Below, one piece after another: positions 2-60,239 of a stretch of DNA of 64,000 nt (the stretch's first letter is position 1; each line of letters begins with the position of its first letter). The notes below the pieces were generated by a model. That model had not been told where the DNA came from, made no database searches, and saw nothing but the letters and a program-made list of their open reading frames with translations. The stretch is taken from the IMG/VR virus record IMGVR_UViG_3300022918_000010; one strand, written 5' to 3'. Made by a program: the position numbers and the translations under genes. Source of the stretch: a virus (taxonomy: Duplodnaviria > Heunggongvirae > Uroviricota > Caudoviricetes).

Positions 2-2503
2 TTCACTTTTAGGAAAGAAACCTGTTTTTAAAGATACAGCTCCTTCAAATTCACCTGTTTTAGGATCAATATTAGGACCCATATATTCTACTTTATTAAA
101 GTATTTAGCTCTATATAAGTCATAGTCTTCATGAGATACTGTTTCTTTTTTGTTCCAGTAGTATCTAGTTTCTTTATCAGCATTCTCAACTACTTCTAAG
201 TATTCATATTTATCTCTGATAGCTTTAAATGCATCACTGTATTTATGATAATCACCATCTTCCATACCTGAAGCAGTACCTATTTCAGCAGATTGAAACT
301 TTCTATTATTAGTCTTATCAATATATAATTGTTTATTGTAAGCTATATCTTCTTTAGAGGCAGTATTAACATTACTGATTGGTATATATTGTTTCATAGT
401 ACCATCTTTTTCTTTAAGATGACTTCTTAATTCATAATACTTTTCCCAGTACTGTTGTCCTACTCTTGTTACGTATCTACCAGTCCATTTACCTGCTGCA
501 TTAAATACTTTCATAAAGTCATAAGTATCAGACTTAGGTTTACTTATTCCTAGAGAAGATAGCAAAGATTTTCCTAATGATTTAATATTATCAATAGCAG
601 TATCAGTTTTATCTAATGCAGTTTGTACACCATTCTTAACAATCTTATCTATAGTAGCTAACAATGGATCTGTTGAAGTAGCTATATCTCCTAAGTAATA
701 ATCCTCAGATGATATATCATTTACTTCCTGTAGAATAGAATCTAATTGTTCTTTAGTTAAAGGTTCATTAGAATACTTCTGATATAATCTTTGTGTATGT
801 TCTTGTAATGCTCTATCAATAGTATCTTTAGCATCATCTAAAGTATCTAATACAGTACCCATTAGTATTTGTTGATCTTTAGATCCAAATCCTTGATACT
901 TAATCAATCCTCTATACGACTCTAAAAACTTATCAGCTTCAATTAATACTGAAGCATATTCTTTTCTGTCTTTGTTTGCATCATTAATAACAAAGTCAAT
1001 AATCTTATTTAATTCATCTTTAGTATAATTAAGAAATCTACCATATGCTAAACTAGGTTTGTCTTGTTCAAGATCAGATCCCAGCATAATAATCAATTCA
1101 TTTATTTTATCTACAGTAACTTGTTTAGGTCTAAATGATATCGAATCTTTTAATTTCTCAAAGTAGCCCTTTCTTACTTCTAAAGCATCAACAATCTTTT
1201 CAACTCTATTATAGAGTTTATCAAACATATCTCCTTCTAATTCTTCTTCAGGAAGGGCTTCTTCCTCTGATAAAAAATCATCATTGTCTACTGGATTATT
1301 AATACCCAGCTTTTCACGTAATTCATTGTACTTAAATGCAGATGATATTTTAGTAGGAATAATTTTATTTACAAATGCAGCATTTTGTGAAGGACTATGT
1401 GACTCAATACCTTCAAATATAAATTCAGTTATAGCTTTATTAGCATCTAGTTTTAAATTTATGTGTACAGATTCTGTAGCTTCAACTTCAAAACCTTGTA
1501 ACTCAGCTAACTTTTTATATACAGCTACTTGAATACCATGTTGTTGTTTAGTGGTTAATGATCCTTCTAATAAAGATCCTTCACTTACTGGATAAGGATT
1601 ATTTCTATATGCATCATCATTAATTGAATTTTTAGAAACCTTTAAATCAATAATTTTTAATTTACCATTAGGTTTAATTACTAGAACATCCATTGCACCT
1701 GCAATACGTGACCCAGGATCACCTAATATTACTTGTGGAATAACTATACTCCCATCAGCAGTAAGTCCTGTTATATAAGCTTGTAATACGTTAAATGCTT
1801 CTTTTTGTTGTGTCTCAGATAATACGGCTAATAGTGGATCTTTTTGAAGTTCTGTCCAAGGTGTTCTTGTTATAATACCTTCTAAGATTTTATCAAATGC
1901 CTGACCATATTCTCTATTAATACCATATAGATTATTAGGATCATGTAACTTACCTTTAATAGCTGTTGTAGTTGAAGTATACGGATTACCATCTACATCA
2001 TGATACACATGTTCTATAGGTTCAAGTATTACAGGATTATCTGGAGATATCATTAAAGCTTCAGCTATTCTCTGTTGTAAGATATTTCCTCTAGAGATAG
2101 CTTTGTTAACTATTTTAGCAGTAGCAACATCTAATACATAAGATGGTCCTCCTTTTTTAAAATTACCACCAGTTAATACTGTACTGTTAAAGCTTGAGAA
2201 TTTAGGTTCACCATTTACATCTGCAAAAGGTAATCCTAATCCAACCATACCTTTAAACATTTTCATATAATCATCAGAGTATGCTATACTCCAAAGACCT
2301 AATGCTATTTCTTCAACACTATCATTTAATAGTTTACCTTCAGCTAATGCAGATTGTATATATGGAGTACTAGCTATTACTTTTGCTGCACCTTTATCTT
2401 GTACATACTTAACTAAGTCTTTGTATAAGATTGATGGTTGCTCATTAGTAGCTAGTACTTTTTCTATTTTATCTTCACTACGATACACTTGGCATGCTGC
2501 CAT
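2..2503 (-). CDS. Giant virion cargo (ejected) protein, N-terminal 834 aa only (runs off the window's left edge); contains a PD-(D/E)xK nuclease-like domain
   Basis: Not in the ORF track because it has no stop in the window. ATG at 2503 (MAACQVYRSEDKIEKV...); frame translated over most of its length and at both ends with no stop seen. Motif IAGAMDVLVIKPNGKLKIIDLK...QQHGIQVAVY (D272, D286-L-K288). Lies directly downstream of the RNAP gene, as in crAss-like cargo clusters. Confidence 0.8.
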   Translation of the reverse strand, partial: MAACQVYRSEDKIEKVLATNEQPSILYKDLVKYVQDKGAAKVIASTPYIQSALAEGKLLNDSVEEIALGLWSIAYSDDYMKMFKGMVGLGLPFADVNGEPKFSSFNSTVLTGGNFKKGGPSYVLDVATAKIVNKAISRGNILQQRIAEALMISPDNPVILEPIEHVYHDVDGNPYTSTTTAIKGKLHDPNNLYGINREYGQAFDKILEGIITRTPWTELQKDPLLAVLSETQQKEAFNVLQAYITGLTADGSIVIPQVILGDPGSRIAGAMDVLVIKPNGKLKIIDLKVSKNSINDDAYRNNPYPVSEGSLLEGSLTTKQQHGIQVAVYKKLAELQGFEVEATESVHINLKLDANKAITEFIFEGIESHSPSQNAAFVNKIIPTKISSAFKYNELREKLGINNPVDNDDFLSEEEALPEEELEGDMFDKLYNRVEKIVDALEVRKGYFEKLKDSISFRPKQVTVDKINELIIMLGSDLEQDKPSLAYGRFLNYTKDELNKIIDFVINDANKDRKEYASVLIEADKFLESYRGLIKYQGFGSKDQQILMGTVLDTLDDAKDTIDRALQEHTQRLYQKYSNEPLTKEQLDSILQEVNDISSEDYYLGDIATSTDPLLATIDKIVKNGVQTALDKTDTAIDNIKSLGKSLLSSLGISKPKSDTYDFMKVFNAAGKWTGRYVTRVGQQYWEKYYELRSHLKEKDGTMKQYIPISNVNTASKEDIAYNKQLYIDKTNNRKFQSAEIGTASGMEDGDYHKYSDAFKAIRDKYEYLEVVENADKETRYYWNKKETVSHEDYDLYRAKYFNKVEYMGPNIDPKTGEFEGAVSLKTGFFPKSE

Positions 2504-2519
2504 ATTTTATTAATTTAAA

Positions 2520-5500
2520 TTATGCACAATTATCATCTAATGGATTATTATTGTTCTTAAACGTTGACTTAAATAGATCTGCAAAATCTTTCATTCTATC
2601 TTGATCAACATCTGCTTGATCTGCATTAGCATTAAAGAATGAGTTGAGCATATTAGATGCTAAATCATCTTGTTCTGGTAATGGAACTTCATTATACATA
2701 TCAGCAGATGGTTCTGATTGATAACTTGTAATTGCTTCAGCAGAGTCTTCTGAATTATATCCAAATAAATTAAGTAAATCCAATGGAGTTTTGACACTAT
2801 CTTTTAATTCTTGTGTTAAGTCATTATATAACCCCCCACTAAAAGATACACCTTTGTTTGTTACTTTAGATGTTATACCAAACTTTTTAGCTAAAACATC
2901 TACTGGAGATTCACTATTTGTAAAGTTAATATTATTTCCTGATAATGCACCAGTTTTCTTAACAGTTTCACCAACAGGTGCAAGTCCCATACGTTGTTCA
3001 ATATCTGAAGCATCCATATTAGAATATCTTCCAGTATTCTCTTGAGCATTACCAAATTGTTTTCTAACTCTTGGTTTCTTAGGTATTACTGGAATAGGTC
3101 CAAATAACTCTCCAATCATAGTAGATTTTCTACTTCCTGTAGGAGTGTATTCTTCATATATAGCTCCTAATCCATTAGCAACATATTCACCTTTTTGAAT
3201 AAGTCTATTTGGATTTGATTCATCTACTGTAATATCACCAACTTTCTTTTTGTCTTTACTATCTTTAGTAACAGCTATAAGTTTATAATAAGTTCTTTTA
3301 CCTTGAATATTACTATCTACAATTACATAAGGAAATGCATATTTACCTAGAGCATTAGAACGAAAACCTTTAGCATCTAATAAAGCTTTATTTTTTTTAA
3401 GTTTAGCTTTCTCAGCATCATTAAATTTACCAGTTCTTTTTATTTGTATTATACCTTGAGTAGTACCAGTATCAAACATTTCTTTTTCATCTCTGATACC
3501 TGCCCATAAGTTAATAGTTATACGAGCTTTAGGTAATTCAACTTCAGGAGTTTTAGTAGTATCATCTTTAACTTTTGGATCAAGTTGGGCTAACTTTTCT
3601 CTTAAAGTAAGTTCTTTAACTGATTCATCTTTTTTAATTTGTCCAGATTTAGTATAAGATTGAGGAACAAATTTCTTTACATCAGGATCTTGCGTTTCTT
3701 CAAATACAGGATTTCTATTCATGATCTTTGTAATCTCAAAAGTATTACCTATATGAGAAGTATAGGATTTCATAAATTCATTAAACAAATCAGTAGATTG
3801 AACACCAAATGTATCAGAATATTTCTGATCAATACCTTTTGTATCAAGTGGCATTTTCAATACACTATTAACTTGTTCAGTAGATTTAAGTAAATCACCA
3901 AACATAAATGTAGGTATATATCTTATGAATGAATTAGACTTGAACTGTCCAGCATCTTTAACTAAAAGATAGTTAAATATATCTACAGCATTAGCTCTAG
4001 TATCATCATTCTGATATATCTCTAAGAAACTATCTTTAAGTTTTTCAACCTGATACTCACTTAATTTAGCCCAAGTATTAGCTTCAGCTTTATTAATACC
4101 ATCTCTGTTAAGATCATTCATTGCAGTAACTTTATCATTGTTAGTTACTTGTGTAGAAATAATATTAACAAATTTAGAAGCAAAGTAGTTATCAGGAAGT
4201 TTAGCTCTGATAGTTTTAAATGTATCTATAATATCATTGAAATCTTCACCTTTTAGTTTAGCAGACTCATCATAAATCATTGCATTATCTAAAGTAGATA
4301 GTGTTCTCAATTTATTATTGTCTAATAAAGACTTCATATAAGCTTTTATAGAAAGGTAAGATAACAAGTCTCTTTTTAGAATTGTATTAAATTCTTTTTC
4401 TGTAGATTTTCTTACACTAAGATTTTCTTTGACTATAGTAGATATACGTTGGAATACGGGAGTTTTCTCTATAAACATAGTTTGAGACATATGATCAATT
4501 TGATCGGCAGTCTGAATATAGTTATACATAAACTCATGATATGGTTTAGCTTTATTTATAGCCATAAATACTTGACGTAAATCAAATGGTAGTTTAGATT
4601 TATAGAAATCTGAATTATCCATTCTTAACCCAAGCTCTTCTATAGTAGTTTTAATATCTGCTAAGTTTTCAAAGCTTGTTCCAAGACCTTTAGTTAATTT
4701 AAGTACTTTAGCTACTTTAGAGAAATTAGCTGCTTGTGCTTTAATACCTTTGAATGATTGTAATACTGCATATTGTAAATCAGCATTATCTCCATTTGTA
4801 TTAAGACCATCATCTAATAAATCATCTGTAAGATCCATAACTTCTTCTTCAGATCTCAGCTTACTATATTTTTCTATAATATTATCTAATAATTCACCTT
4901 TTTTAATTTGTTGTTCTGTACCAGTTTTAATTTTGTTATTAGCAATCTTAATCTGTGCAAAATATTCTCTTATAGAAGGTTGTAATAAAAATCTAATTGC
5001 AGATTTAATAGGTACACCTTGTGCAAGCATATTAGTAACATATCCAATAGCTTCTATATTAAGACCTAATCTAGCTGCTAATCTTTCCTTAGCATTATCT
5101 GTCATTGCAGATACTACTGTAGAAATAGATCCAAATATTCTATCACCAGTATAATCTCCTGTAATAGGATCAAAAGCTTTTAATGACTCTTTACCTGATT
5201 TATCTCTAGGAGAATATGTATTAAATGTATGACCATTTAATTTGAATAAGAATAAGTCTTCATAATTAGGAACTCTTGTTACTTTACCATCTTCAGCTAC
5301 TTCTTCAGATATAGCAGATATGTATGAGCTTCTTAAGTTTATATTGAATGAACTTAAGATAGAGTATGCTAAGATAGAATTTACAGCAGGACCAATATTT
5401 CTAGATCCCTCTTTATTGTTTGTAAAGGATTTATACTTACCTATTATACTATCTGTATCTACAGCACCCTCATTAACAATATCAACTATTTGAGGTACTT

Positions 5501-47231: not shown

Positions 47232-48845
47232 TTAGAATGATCCACCAGTAATTGGGTTTCTCATTACAATTTTCAATACTTTAGTAGGATCTTTAACCCA
47301 TACTGCTGGCATTGTTTGACTCATCATTACACGGTAACCATTGAATTGACCTGATGATTGGAACCCTTGAGTACGACCCATATAATCCATCGTACCATTT
47401 TGATACCACCATTTCAATTGATTATCCCATTTAAGTTTCAACAAGAAGATGTTGTCATTAGTATTATCAGTGATATCAAAGATAATAAAGTTATATGAAC
47501 TTAGTGGGAAACCATCTATAATTGGATTCTCAATATCACTTGTATGAATATTATCAAATGCTGGATTCAATACAAATTGTACGTTAGCCAAGAATGGAAT
47601 AATATAAGAAGTGTATGAGTAACCAAAGTTTAGATCCATACCTTGACCTGAGATAGCACCAATATCACTAGCATTAATTACTAAACCAGAGTTAACTGCT
47701 TCACGTTTAATAGCTTCATTGATCAATTTCATACCACCCATACCAGTTTGAACAACTAGTTTACGTTTTGGATCTGGTCCTTTAAACTCAACTTTACCAT
47801 TGTAGAAATTAAATAATTCAGATTTGAACAAATCTAAAGTAAATGAACCTTTGTTATAGATACGTTTATAAGCATTATCTAATTGTTTCCAAAGACCCAC
47901 AGATAATCTCATATCATCTGGACCATCTTGTTTAATCCTACCACCATGTCCCCACATTAAATAAGATTCAATATCATTAGATATTTTACTTAAGTGAGCT
48001 GATTCAAGGTTGGTTAAGAAGGTACGTGACAATGTTCCTTTTGCATAAGCATTTTTAACATAGTCTTTACCCATTTTATTAGCCATATCTTCAATAGAAG
48101 TAATTGAAGGATCAATACCTTTATCAAAGTTACGCCATACTTCTGTTACAGGAATAGTACCTGAAGCAGTCATACCACCTTTGATCATTAGATCTGCTCT
48201 GGAAGAAATAGAATAATGAACGTGTGCTTCTGATCCACCAACATAGTTATAGAATTCACGGAATCCTGAACCTACTTGGATATCAGAGAAACGTTCTCCA
48301 TATTCACCCCTAGCAGAACCTTTACGGAAGAATTGAGTTCCAGTTTTAAGATACTTGTTATCCAAGAACTTAAGACTGTCATTGTTAACTAGGGTTACAG
48401 TATGAATCCATCCATCACCAGTTGGGATAGTATCTTCAGCTGTAATATAAAGCTCTGCACCATTGTATTTATCATAACTGATAATATCACCATGTCCAAA
48501 CCTTTTATTTAATTTAATCTGAAATGGTTTACCATCAATACCTTTTGTAGTATTTCCTGGTTCTACATCTTCCAGAATATAAGGAAGATCCTGAACTACT
48601 GGTACAGACCATTTGTATTCACCACGAGTATTATCTACTTCGATAACGTTCTTTCCACCAAATGAACTCATTTGATATAGTGGCATTTCTACTTTCTGAG
48701 CCATTGCCCATAAATCCACTGGACCTAAATCCATAGGATCAGAGCTTTTTAGCATCTGAGTCATGTGATAGGAATCCACATGTGAGCTCACTTCATATTG
48801 AGTATCACGTAGGAAAATCCCGTTATTCAAAGTTGGTGTTGCCAT
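47232..48845 (-). CDS. Major capsid protein (HK97 fold, crAss-like)
   Basis: 537 aa; MATP...LRDT.Y.VSSHVDSYH N-terminus and IENDIESYLMWG-like region typical of crAss-like MCPs; position after portal and scaffold. Confidence 0.85.
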   Translation of the reverse strand: MATPTLNNGIFLRDTQYEVSSHVDSYHMTQMLKSSDPMDLGPVDLWAMAQKVEMPLYQMSSFGGKNVIEVDNTRGEYKWSVPVVQDLPYILEDVEPGNTTKGIDGKPFQIKLNKRFGHGDIISYDKYNGAELYITAEDTIPTGDGWIHTVTLVNNDSLKFLDNKYLKTGTQFFRKGSARGEYGERFSDIQVGSGFREFYNYVGGSEAHVHYSISSRADLMIKGGMTASGTIPVTEVWRNFDKGIDPSITSIEDMANKMGKDYVKNAYAKGTLSRTFLTNLESAHLSKISNDIESYLMWGHGGRIKQDGPDDMRLSVGLWKQLDNAYKRIYNKGSFTLDLFKSELFNFYNGKVEFKGPDPKRKLVVQTGMGGMKLINEAIKREAVNSGLVINASDIGAISGQGMDLNFGYSYTSYIIPFLANVQFVLNPAFDNIHTSDIENPIIDGFPLSSYNFIIFDITDNTNDNIFLLKLKWDNQLKWWYQNGTMDYMGRTQGFQSSGQFNGYRVMMSQTMPAVWVKDPTKVLKIVMRNPITGGSF

Positions 48846-59497: not shown

Positions 59498-59535
59498 AAA
59501 CAATAAAAGCTAGTATAAATTAATATACTAGCTTT
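59498..59535 (-). terminator. Terminator closing the six-tRNA operon
   Basis: 12-bp stem AAAGCTAGTATA/TATACTAGCTTT followed by TATTGTTT, 6 nt after tRNA-Trp. Confidence 0.75.
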
Positions 59536-59541
59536 ACTATG

Positions 59542-59614
59542 CGCCAGAGGTAGGAGTCGAACCTACTTTCTTTGGGGTTGGAATCCAATGCTTGACCAAT
59601 TAAGCTTCCCTGAC
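59542..59614 (-). tRNA. trnW: tRNA-Trp (CCA)
   Basis: Acceptor GTCAGGG/CTCTGGC, loop TTCCAAC, G73, T loop TTCGACT; A31-C39 mismatch. Confidence 0.85.
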
Positions 59615-59617
59615 AAA

Positions 59618-59689
59618 GGTGTCTAGTCAGATTCAAACTGACCCTAACAAAACCACAATTTGTCGTGCTATCACTAACACTATAGACAC
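59618..59689 (-). tRNA. trnH: tRNA-His (GTG)
   Basis: Acceptor GTGTCTA/TAGACAC, C73, anticodon arm ACAAA-TTGTGGT-TTTGT; atypical T loop TTTGAAT. Confidence 0.85.
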
Positions 59690-59691
59690 AG

Positions 59692-59762
59692 TTGCTCTAA
59701 ATGGAATCAAACCATTTCTAAGAAGACCAAAACTTCTTGTACTATCAATATACTATAGAGCA
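59692..59762 (-). tRNA. trnQ: tRNA-Gln (TTG)
   Basis: Acceptor TGCTCTA/TAGAGCA (U1:A72), anticodon arm AGAAG-TTTTGGT-CTTCT; atypical T loop TTTGATT. Confidence 0.8.
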
Positions 59763-59768
59763 ATATAG

Positions 59769-59842
59769 TATTCAGAACTGGATTTGAACCAGTGACCTAC
59801 AAGGTATAAGCTTGTTGCTCTCACCAACTGAGCTATCTGAAT
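59769..59842 (-). tRNA. trnI: tRNA-Ile (TAT), AUA decoder
   Basis: Acceptor ATTCAGA/TCTGAAT, D arm GCTC-AGTTGGTGA-GAGC, anticodon arm ACAAG-CTTATAC-CTTGT, T loop TTCAAAT. Confidence 0.85.
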
Positions 59843-59847
59843 ATATG

Positions 59848-59919
59848 TGGAACCAATAGGATTCGAACCTATGACCAACTCCTCTTCAGGGAATCACTCT
59901 ACCACTGAGTTACAGTTCC
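59848..59919 (-). tRNA. trnF: tRNA-Phe (GAA)
   Basis: Acceptor GGAACTG/TGGTTCC, loop CTGAAGA, T loop TTCGAAT. Confidence 0.9.
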
Positions 59920-59968
59920 AATTACACTTCCATTCTCGTTCGAATGTTTAGTGTGAACCCATAATCAG

Positions 59969-60044
59969 TCTTGTGGGAGGGATTTGAACCCCCGTACTCC
60001 TCAGTCCAATTGAGGTTAGATAAACCAGACTCCTATACCACAAG
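59969..60044 (-). tRNA. trnP: tRNA-Pro (TGG)
   Basis: Acceptor CTTGTGG/CCACAAG (C1:G72, A73), anticodon arm CCTCA-ATTGGAC-TGAGG, T loop TTCAAAT. Confidence 0.85.
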
Positions 60045-60058
60045 ATAAATTCTCCTTA

Positions 60059-60095
60059 AACAAAAAACCCCTAATCAATTAAGACCAGGGGTTTA
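60059..60095 (-). terminator. Intrinsic terminator between the leader ORF and the tRNA genes (candidate attenuator)
   Basis: AAACCCCTGGTC-TTAATT-GATTAGGGGTTT stem (12 bp including 2 G:U) then TTTGTTT; ~15 nt upstream of tRNA-Pro. Confidence 0.85.
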
Positions 60096-60131
60096 CCTTC
60101 GGGAGAAAGGGTAATATTTTATATTAAACCT

Positions 60132-60203
60132 TTACACACAAATATAACCCCCGTAATAAAACGGATGCCATTGTTGTTGTATAAAGATTTGTTGTACTTT
60201 CAT
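60132..60203 (-). CDS. Candidate attenuator leader peptide MKVQQIFIQQQWHPFYYGGYICV (23 aa)
   Basis: ATG AAA GTA CAA CAA ATC TTT ATA CAA CAA CAA TGG CAT CCG TTT TAT TAC GGG GGT TAT ATT TGT GTG TAA, between a promoter and a terminator. Confidence 0.7.
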   Translation of the reverse strand: MKVQQIFIQQQWHPFYYGGYICV

Positions 60204-60207
60204 ATAG

Positions 60208-60239
60208 TAAATATAGTGATTATTATTAATATCCCCAAA
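60208..60239 (-). promoter_or_regulatory. Bacteroidota sigma70-type promoter (-33 TTTG, 20-nt spacer, -7 TATATTTA)
   Basis: Matches the TTTG-N19-21-TAnnTTTG consensus except the last base; 4 nt upstream of the leader ATG. Confidence 0.65.

Follow-up and report, generated by a model that had tools for sequence, protein, structure and literature searches.

A tRNA operon of a crAss-like phage preceded by a putative multi-codon leader-peptide attenuator

Introduction

Why would a phage place a short open reading frame (ORF) and an intrinsic terminator directly ahead of its tRNA genes, and why should this ORF be composed of the very amino acids that the tRNAs carry? Both questions are raised by a unit of six tRNA genes on the minus strand of a 64,000-nt stretch of phage DNA (IMG/VR record IMGVR_UViG_3300022918_000010; the whole stretch is called the window below), located between positions 60239 and 59498. 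A first-pass annotation, made from the sequence alone, had listed a promoter, a 23-codon ORF, a terminator, six tRNA genes and a closing terminator in this order, and had read the ORF as the leader peptide of an attenuator sensing the tRNAs encoded behind it. All of these parts are present on the minus strand. According to our analysis, the operon is probably controlled by a ribosome-mediated leader-peptide transcription attenuator of the trp/ilv type that responds to several codons, a reading supported by conservation in relatives, by leaders that track the tRNA set, by a predicted antiterminator, and by computed stall positions around the codons concerned.

The regulation of tRNA genes acts mainly at their promoters, through growth rate and stringent control, and during processing, and amino-acid and synthetase genes are known to be subject to leader-peptide attenuation. 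The annotation had known of no described phage tRNA operon with such an attenuator. None was found in our full-text literature searches, nor did these yield a description of leader-peptide control of tRNA genes in general.

The leader core and the downstream tRNA genes

The leader ORF (60203-60132; all features of the unit are on the minus strand) runs from ATG to TAA over 23 codons plus stop and encodes the peptide MKVQQIFIQQQWHPFYYGGYICV. Its codons 4-15 (60194-60159; QQIFIQQQWHPF), here termed the regulatory core, are drawn solely from the amino acids of the six downstream tRNAs, all six of which occur, and they include five CAA codons and one ATA codon, as had been noted at first sight. 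The tRNA genes themselves were found with both ARAGORN and Rfam (Rfam scores of 46-74 bits) and follow each other as tRNA-Pro(UGG) at 60044-59968, tRNA-Phe(GAA) at 59919-59847, tRNA-Ile(UAU) at 59842-59768, tRNA-Gln(UUG) at 59762-59691, tRNA-His(GUG) at 59689-59618 and tRNA-Trp(CCA) at 59614-59541.

The match of the leader core to this tRNA set is far beyond chance. The six amino acids account for 21% of the protein residues of the window phage, in which Trp, His and Cys each contribute about 1%. A run of at least 12 codons from the six-amino-acid set has a probability of ~8.5e-8, although composition-based probabilities of this kind are too strong for Pro, Phe and possibly Cys, because RNA pairing shapes the same bases. 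Among the 38,760 possible sets of six amino acids, only the actual one yields a 12-codon run in the leader, and the longest set-only run among the 338 other short ORFs (15-40 codons) of the window is 7.

Leaders of related phages follow their tRNA sets

Relatives were drawn from assemblies of public sequencing runs by means of the terminase and of the 157-aa protein encoded next to the unit. Five sequences, all of them metagenome contigs, represent four distinct leader lineages. Lineage A comprises the window and L084, which differs by one base; lineage B (L085) carries the same tRNAs plus tRNA-Thr(UGU) and has the leader MKVTVTFTHQIWHPFKDRGYWRV; lineage C (L086) carries the same seven tRNAs as lineage B behind the leader MKNNTTTFTQQIWHPFKDRGYISM; and lineage D (L101) encodes tRNAs for Pro, Phe, Cys, Gln, His and Trp behind the leader MISNNNQFQFHWFPCTNRAEIVMNK. 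Related tRNA clusters are also present in L083, L100, L102, L104 and L099, on contigs that end before the leader and do not enter the leader comparison.

Every amino acid of a lineage's own tRNA set is found within a run of 9-12 codons in its leader. The probabilities of these runs in the relatives are ~5e-7 to 5e-5 by analytic approximation and at most 1.5e-5 by simulation. All three changes of the set (Thr added, Ile lost, Cys gained) are matched in the leader: three to four Thr codons stand in the leaders of L085 and L086 alongside the added tRNA-Thr, and in L101, where Cys replaces Ile, the core reads QFQFHWFPC. The gain of Thr counts as one event, because lineages B and C share ancestry. 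The Ile/Thr differences between leaders are single-base changes (ATA/ACA and ATC/ACC). Our rough estimate from proteome frequencies, which ignores structural constraints, gives ~1e-4 as the chance that the residues gained and lost would be named correctly.

The reading frame is likewise maintained. The ORFs of lineages A to D are 23, 23, 24 and 25 codons long, and TGG is in frame in all four, its distance to the ATG being 33, 33, 36 and 33 nt. Relative to lineage B, lineage C has an exact 3-nt insertion, and the insertions and deletions of lineage D compensate each other so that the frame is kept. A terminator (stem and U tract) separates leader and tRNAs in all four lineages, and another one follows the last tRNA in every lineage. 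The first-pass annotation had suggested examining relatives for a conserved short ORF and terminator and for a leader composition that co-varies with the tRNAs. The former are kept in the four lineages together with the frame and the antiterminator described below, and the latter is borne out by the Thr gain and the Ile-to-Cys exchange, both mirrored in the leader.

Two relatives further indicate that leader, terminator and tRNAs behave as a module, as judged from the arrangement of their sequences. In L084 a different gene, encoding 122 aa, lies upstream, yet the promoter-like site, the leader and the terminator are the same. L087, with a terminase 83% identical, has neither tRNAs nor leader ORF; it keeps a homologous terminator directly after the upstream gene, followed by the conserved promoter of the next gene. 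The leader is thus present in 5/5 tRNA-bearing sequences and absent in the one tRNA-less relative.

Predicted mutually exclusive hairpins and the position of the ribosome

In every lineage, the transcript folds as a long hairpin within the ORF (hairpin 1:2) followed by the terminator (3:4). In the window, hairpin 1:2, the putative anti-antiterminator, spans 60190-60126 (-24 kcal/mol) and includes an apex hairpin (60165-60150) with a U-rich run after it, a candidate pause site. The terminator consists of a stem-loop at 60094-60065 (12-bp stem, 6-nt loop, -17.5 kcal/mol) and extends through its U tract to 60059. The two strands of the predicted antiterminator draw on the 3' part of the leader and on the terminator 5' arm. 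Its 5' strand, segment 2 (60153-60128), spans codons 17-23 and the stop codon and contains CGGGGGUU, which is complementary to the terminator 5' arm; its 3' strand, segment 3 (60111-60086), combines a conserved ACCCUUUCUCC element with the terminator 5' arm AACCCCUG. Before the 3' arm of the terminator is transcribed, segment 2 can pair with the 5' arm and the ACCCUUUCUCC element instead. This element is conserved in L084, L085 and L086, which we attribute to its pairing with segment 2 in the antiterminator. Across the four lineages, the energies range from -15.5 to -24.0 kcal/mol for hairpin 1:2, from -20.8 to -24.9 kcal/mol for the antiterminator and from -14.0 to -18.3 kcal/mol for the terminator.

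Comparison of the five sequences supports both alternative states. In their alignment, the antiterminator has 92.7% of cells paired and five compensatory pairs; none of 500 shuffles was as good, and controls slid along the alignment reached 40-67%. The state of hairpin 1:2 plus terminator has 87% of cells paired and four compensatory pairs. With the upstream part shuffled, the antiterminator z-scores were -1.4 in lineage A and -3.2, -3.2 and -4.4 in the others. Segment 2 consists of CGGGGGUU and onward in lineage A and of ACAGGGCU in lineage D. The terminator 5' arm (segment 3) of lineage D has a C-to-G change, and both strands with which this arm can pair, segment 2 and segment 4, carry the matching change. 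This double match is accounted for by the alternative pairing, which predicts a change in both partners.

In the window phage, hairpin 1:2 (-24.0 kcal/mol) is favoured over the antiterminator (-20.8 kcal/mol), and the predicted probability of the antiterminator is 0 without a ribosome. The influence of a translating ribosome was modelled by masking the covered bases, setting the A site on each codon with 10, 13 or 16 nt protected downstream and reading out the probability of the key antiterminator helix. The probability was 0 when no ribosome was present and when the A site was on codon 1, rose to ~0.9 from codon 3-5 to codon 12-14 depending on the protection length, and was 0 again from codon 14-16 to the stop. 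The productive A-site positions run from codon 3-5 to codon 13-15 depending on that length (codons 4-13 at every length), and this range of about codons 3-15 brackets core codons 4-15. In lineages B, C and D the helix also formed without a ribosome and was lost near the last codon of the set, and in all four lineages its 3' limit fell within ~1-2 codons of that last set codon.

The promoter-like site

A promoter-like site of the Bacteroidota type lies at 60239-60208, with TTTG at 60239-60236, a 20-nt spacer and TATATTTA at 60215-60208, 4 nt from the ATG. The promoter named in the first-pass annotation holds in part: the site exists and is conserved in relatives, but motif statistics alone lend it no support. 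A TAnnTTTR-like box occurs 4-13 nt ahead of the ATG in 5/5 sequences (window, L084, L085, L086 and L101, the last with one mismatch), TTTG is found at 19-20 nt spacing in 4/5 of them, and L084 keeps the site despite its different upstream gene. Since the frequency of the motif is at chance level, support for a promoter comes from this conservation in relatives. When the geometry TTTG-(18-21 nt)-TATNTT-(4-8 nt)-ATG is required, the window has two sites, which are exactly the leader start (60239-60201) and the start of the next gene (59440-59403). The latter, a promoter-like site plus the ATG of the gene for the 157-aa protein, marks the end of the tRNA unit, and its sequence is conserved in L086, L087, L101 and L102. 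The 4-nt distance to the ATG implies that the predicted leader mRNA would be leaderless or nearly so, and the two sites together suggest that the phage may commonly use such mRNAs.

A separate promoter for the tRNAs downstream of the terminator had been named as a finding that would speak against the attenuator. The distance between the terminator and tRNA-Pro is ~20 nt, and there is therefore no space for one.

Proposed mechanism and alternative explanations

We posit the following mechanism. Transcription would start just upstream of the 23-codon leader. When codons 4-15 are decoded fast, the ribosome would reach the stop codon and cover segment 2, the terminator would form, and RNA polymerase would stop ~20 nt ahead of tRNA-Pro. 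If any of the six charged tRNAs became scarce, the ribosome would stall in the core and hold hairpin 1:2 open, leaving segment 2 free to pair with the terminator 5' arm; the resulting long antiterminator would let the polymerase read into the tRNA genes. Newly made tRNAs would then speed up decoding and turn the unit off again. As the unit would sense the same tRNAs that it produces, such a circuit would constitute negative feedback, and its logic would be that of an OR gate over six tRNAs, or seven in some relatives. We infer the translation of the leader, the termination of the polymerase, the kinetics and the natural trigger. The window phage uses ATA for 49% of its Ile codons, CAA for 82% of Gln, ACA for 43% of Thr and CCA for 45% of Pro, so that the plainest trigger would be a host tRNA pool that serves these heavily used codons poorly. 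On balance, we lean slightly towards the broader view that these phages carry a programmable homeostat of tRNA supply, in which the leader serves as a list of tRNAs, is re-edited by single-base changes at each gain, loss or swap of a tRNA, and switches on the whole operon upon a single shortage.

A number of points weigh against the attenuator. The evidence for it is computational throughout and comes from four lineages alone, all of them metagenome contigs, with most of the covariation contributed by lineage D (L101). In L085, L086 and L101 the antiterminator is at least as stable as hairpin 1:2 and forms even without a ribosome; with hairpin 1:2 weaker in these three relatives, their untranslated default state may differ from that of the trp model. 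The full-length transcript invariably favours the terminator at equilibrium, and antitermination would therefore have to be kinetic. The motif TTTG-N20-TATATTTA has nine matches in the window against 7.2 expected, which is not above chance. The leaders also contain rare codons (CCG 1%, ATC 5%, ACC 3%), possibly out of structural need, and in segment 1 the sequences CCG-UUU and CCU-UGU resemble segment 3, so that pairing constrains the same bases as the codon content. Finally, the mechanism presumes that the polymerase transcribing the unit obeys intrinsic terminators.

The same attenuator could have a different natural trigger. The first-pass annotation had pointed to host defence, in which anticodon nucleases or tRNA-depleting systems cut host tRNAs and the stalled ribosome brings about the production of replacements. 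The architecture would be identical, sensing several tRNAs through an OR gate would be of use against an attack that cannot be foreseen, and work from 2021-2023 reportedly proposes that phage tRNAs stand in for host tRNAs that have been degraded or cleaved. We nevertheless regard this trigger as unlikely, because nothing in the sequence points to defence and the phage tRNAs mostly read heavily used A-ending codons, as would be expected if they simply compensated for codon supply. The gated set moreover includes none of the best-known targets of anticodon nucleases, which are Lys, Tyr, Asp, Asn and Arg. This trigger receives no specific support, and codon-supply feedback explains the data equally well. 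Another possibility is that the terminator has no role beyond ending the upstream gene block. The ORF would then be fortuitous or untranslated, and the tRNAs would arise from leaky read-through or an unrecognised promoter. The terminator does seem to serve the upstream block too, since tRNA-less L087 keeps a homologous one directly behind its upstream gene, and the promoter motif alone is not significant. That this is the terminator's sole role is very unlikely in view of an ORF whose frame and composition are conserved and shift with the tRNA set, a leader that is missing exactly where tRNAs are missing, an antiterminator that covaries with the terminator and the short distance to tRNA-Pro.

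Two further alternatives abandon the ribosome or the switch. A T-box-like RNA might sense uncharged tRNAs directly, with the row of codons acting as specifiers that pair with anticodons and stabilize the antiterminator. Such an RNA would explain why the leader has at least one codon per downstream tRNA next to a terminator/antiterminator switch. Against it, permissive Rfam scans of the window region and L085 gave no leader, T-box or other regulatory family at E <=1, the codons form an uninterrupted row in a single frame between an ATG and a stop, with insertions and deletions that preserve the frame, and it is for a ribosome footprint that the computed stall positions bracket the core; we consider it still less likely than a terminator for the upstream block alone. 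Least probable of all is a micro-protein with a function of its own, such as a small peptide rich in aromatic residues, with hairpins that would only stabilize or process the transcript. The ORF is conserved in four lineages and always has W, H, P and F, but their order changes (WHPF versus HWFP), the flanks are unrelated, the composition follows the tRNA set and the C-terminal half is dictated by RNA pairing.

Comparison with known attenuators

Among known systems, the putative attenuator is closest in design to multi-codon leaders. The ilvGMEDA leader contains Ile, Leu and Val codons, and the thr leader contains Thr and Ile codons. Like the predicted phage unit, both are short ORFs rich in codons of several sensed amino acids, form mutually exclusive 1:2, 2:3 and 3:4 hairpins with a terminator before the regulated genes, and respond to a stall on any sensed codon with read-through, as is predicted for the phage. 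The phage unit differs in regulating tRNA genes in place of biosynthetic enzymes, so that the sensed species is the product. It also covers six or seven specificities with mostly 1-3 codons each (Gln has up to five in the window phage), belongs to a phage of Bacteroidota-type hosts with an apparently leaderless mRNA, and has no sequence or Rfam relationship to these leaders.

The logic modelled for the window phage is also that of trpL: hairpin 1:2 and the terminator are the outcome when the ribosome is early or missing, the antiterminator when it is stalled in the core, and the terminator again once it stands at the stop. In the trp attenuator, too, thermodynamics favours the terminator, and switching has to be kinetic. 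The phage leader differs from trpL in having one Trp codon among 12 mixed regulatory codons, and in L085, L086 and L101 the antiterminator outweighs hairpin 1:2. Bacteroidetes have a cis-regulatory RNA listed as the Bacteroid-trp motif (RF01692; PMC2864571), to which the phage leader has no Rfam match.

T-box riboswitches, whose targets are aminoacyl-tRNA synthetase and amino-acid genes, resemble the phage unit in that the state of specific tRNAs sets the output through a choice between terminator and antiterminator. They recognise a single uncharged tRNA by direct binding, need no translation and are marked by a conserved Stem I and T-box sequence, whereas the phage sensor is a predicted translated ORF. 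The pheST attenuator with its pheM leader is similar in that part of the decoding machinery is controlled through ribosomes that stall on the codons it serves; there, the regulated component is the synthetase for one amino acid, and in the phage it would be the tRNAs themselves. Taken together, classical attenuators (trpL, hisL, ilvL, thrL, pheL and leuL) act on biosynthesis or synthetase genes, while the phage unit would act on six tRNAs and has no homology to a curated family. The idea of a Phe-rich leader before the tRNA-Phe genes of Escherichia coli was also considered and dropped, as pheV has no upstream leader ORF.

If the proposed mechanism is true, phages would gauge the decoding capacity of the host for individual codons and supplement just the part in short supply. 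This would bear on the question of why phages carry tRNAs at all, be it to compensate for codon usage or to replace degraded or cleaved host tRNAs, and the leader would predict in readable form which tRNAs a phage treats as limiting. The rewritten leaders of the lineages (Thr; Cys for Ile) would provide ready natural controls. The module could be used as a compact sensor of tRNA availability and would represent a natural multiplexed gauge of decoding capacity during infection.

Genomic context and variation of the tRNA clusters

The window is part of the genome of a crAss-like phage with a GC content of 30%. A Pfam Crass_capsid match (4.6e-32) at 47232-48845, PHROG matches for terminase and portal, and a 4497-aa ORF typical of crAss-like phages place it in the Crassvirales by sequence. 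A protein identical to the neighbouring protein of the window was found on contigs of up to 138 kb. Upstream of the unit, a run of small ORFs on the minus strand stops at 60226, and the unit itself is closed by an intrinsic terminator at 59535-59506. Further downstream and outside the unit, tRNA-Met (58904-58831) and tRNA-Cys (58574-58503) lie singly between protein genes without a leader of their own, so that the first cluster alone would be gated. The counterpart of this Met/Cys group in the relatives is Ile(GAU)-Met-Asn.

The clusters of the relatives vary in several places. The spacer between tRNA-Pro and tRNA-Phe, 48 nt long in the window (59967-59920), measures 82 nt in L085 (4332-4413), where it contains an acceptor-like stem and a T-arm-like GGTTCAATTCC motif. 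A tRNA in this spacer, considered as an explanation for the Val codon in the L085 leader, was rejected, as neither ARAGORN nor Rfam gave a tRNA match; the spacer may be a decayed tRNA. Similarly, the place between Cys and Trp that holds tRNA-Gln and tRNA-His in the relatives is occupied in L102 (240-393) by tRNA-like sequences without an ARAGORN call, which may be pseudo-tRNAs. L083, with a neighbour protein 79% identical, has a tRNA with the anticodon UCA (224-295) in the slot of tRNA-Trp(CCA), followed by tRNA-Thr. Labelled SeC by ARAGORN, the UCA tRNA may be of an opal-reading Trp type.

L084 contains two ORFs that are additional to those of the window (1817-2185 and 2854-3264), neither with a Pfam match. 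The first encodes 122 aa just upstream of the promoter-like site of the leader and the second 136 aa between tRNA-His and tRNA-Trp. In L087 (7944-8905), the terminase (1125 aa) shows a weak LAGLIDADG_3 match, which suggests a possible intein or homing-endonuclease insertion.

Searches for further members

Additional members were sought in several collections. Blastn against GenBank phages gave matches at the level of tRNAs and no relative of the leader, and scans of GTDB genomes likewise gave no relative of the leader. Pattern scans of IMG/VR for the leader peptide and the conserved motif of segments 1 and 2 had no matches; the corresponding scan of JGI metagenomes had 11, all of them chance matches in unrelated coding DNA. 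The 80 terminase relatives in IMG/VR (49-63% identity) lack this tRNA cluster and mostly encode just tRNA-Met, no tRNA cluster is present in L103 (terminase 65% identical), and a covariance model of the leader recovered no additional members among 56 loci.

Two arrangements ahead of tRNA genes in other crAss-like phages were observed in the course of these searches. In the uncultured phage cr85_1 (MT774390.1; L106:1570-1730), an unrelated crAss-like phage of the human gut, an array of at least 17 tRNAs is directly preceded by a long hairpin (13-nt perfect stem and T run), ahead of which stands a Bacteroides-type promoter (TTTG...TACCTTTG). No neat leader ORF was seen upstream of this array, and composition is uninformative here because the array covers most amino acids. 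More distant relatives share a conserved stretch of ~300 nt immediately ahead of tRNA-Arg/tRNA-Thr (L032:5920-6218 and L034:5840-6139). It is richer in GC, shows no obvious ORF and, from its sequence, looks like a structured RNA.

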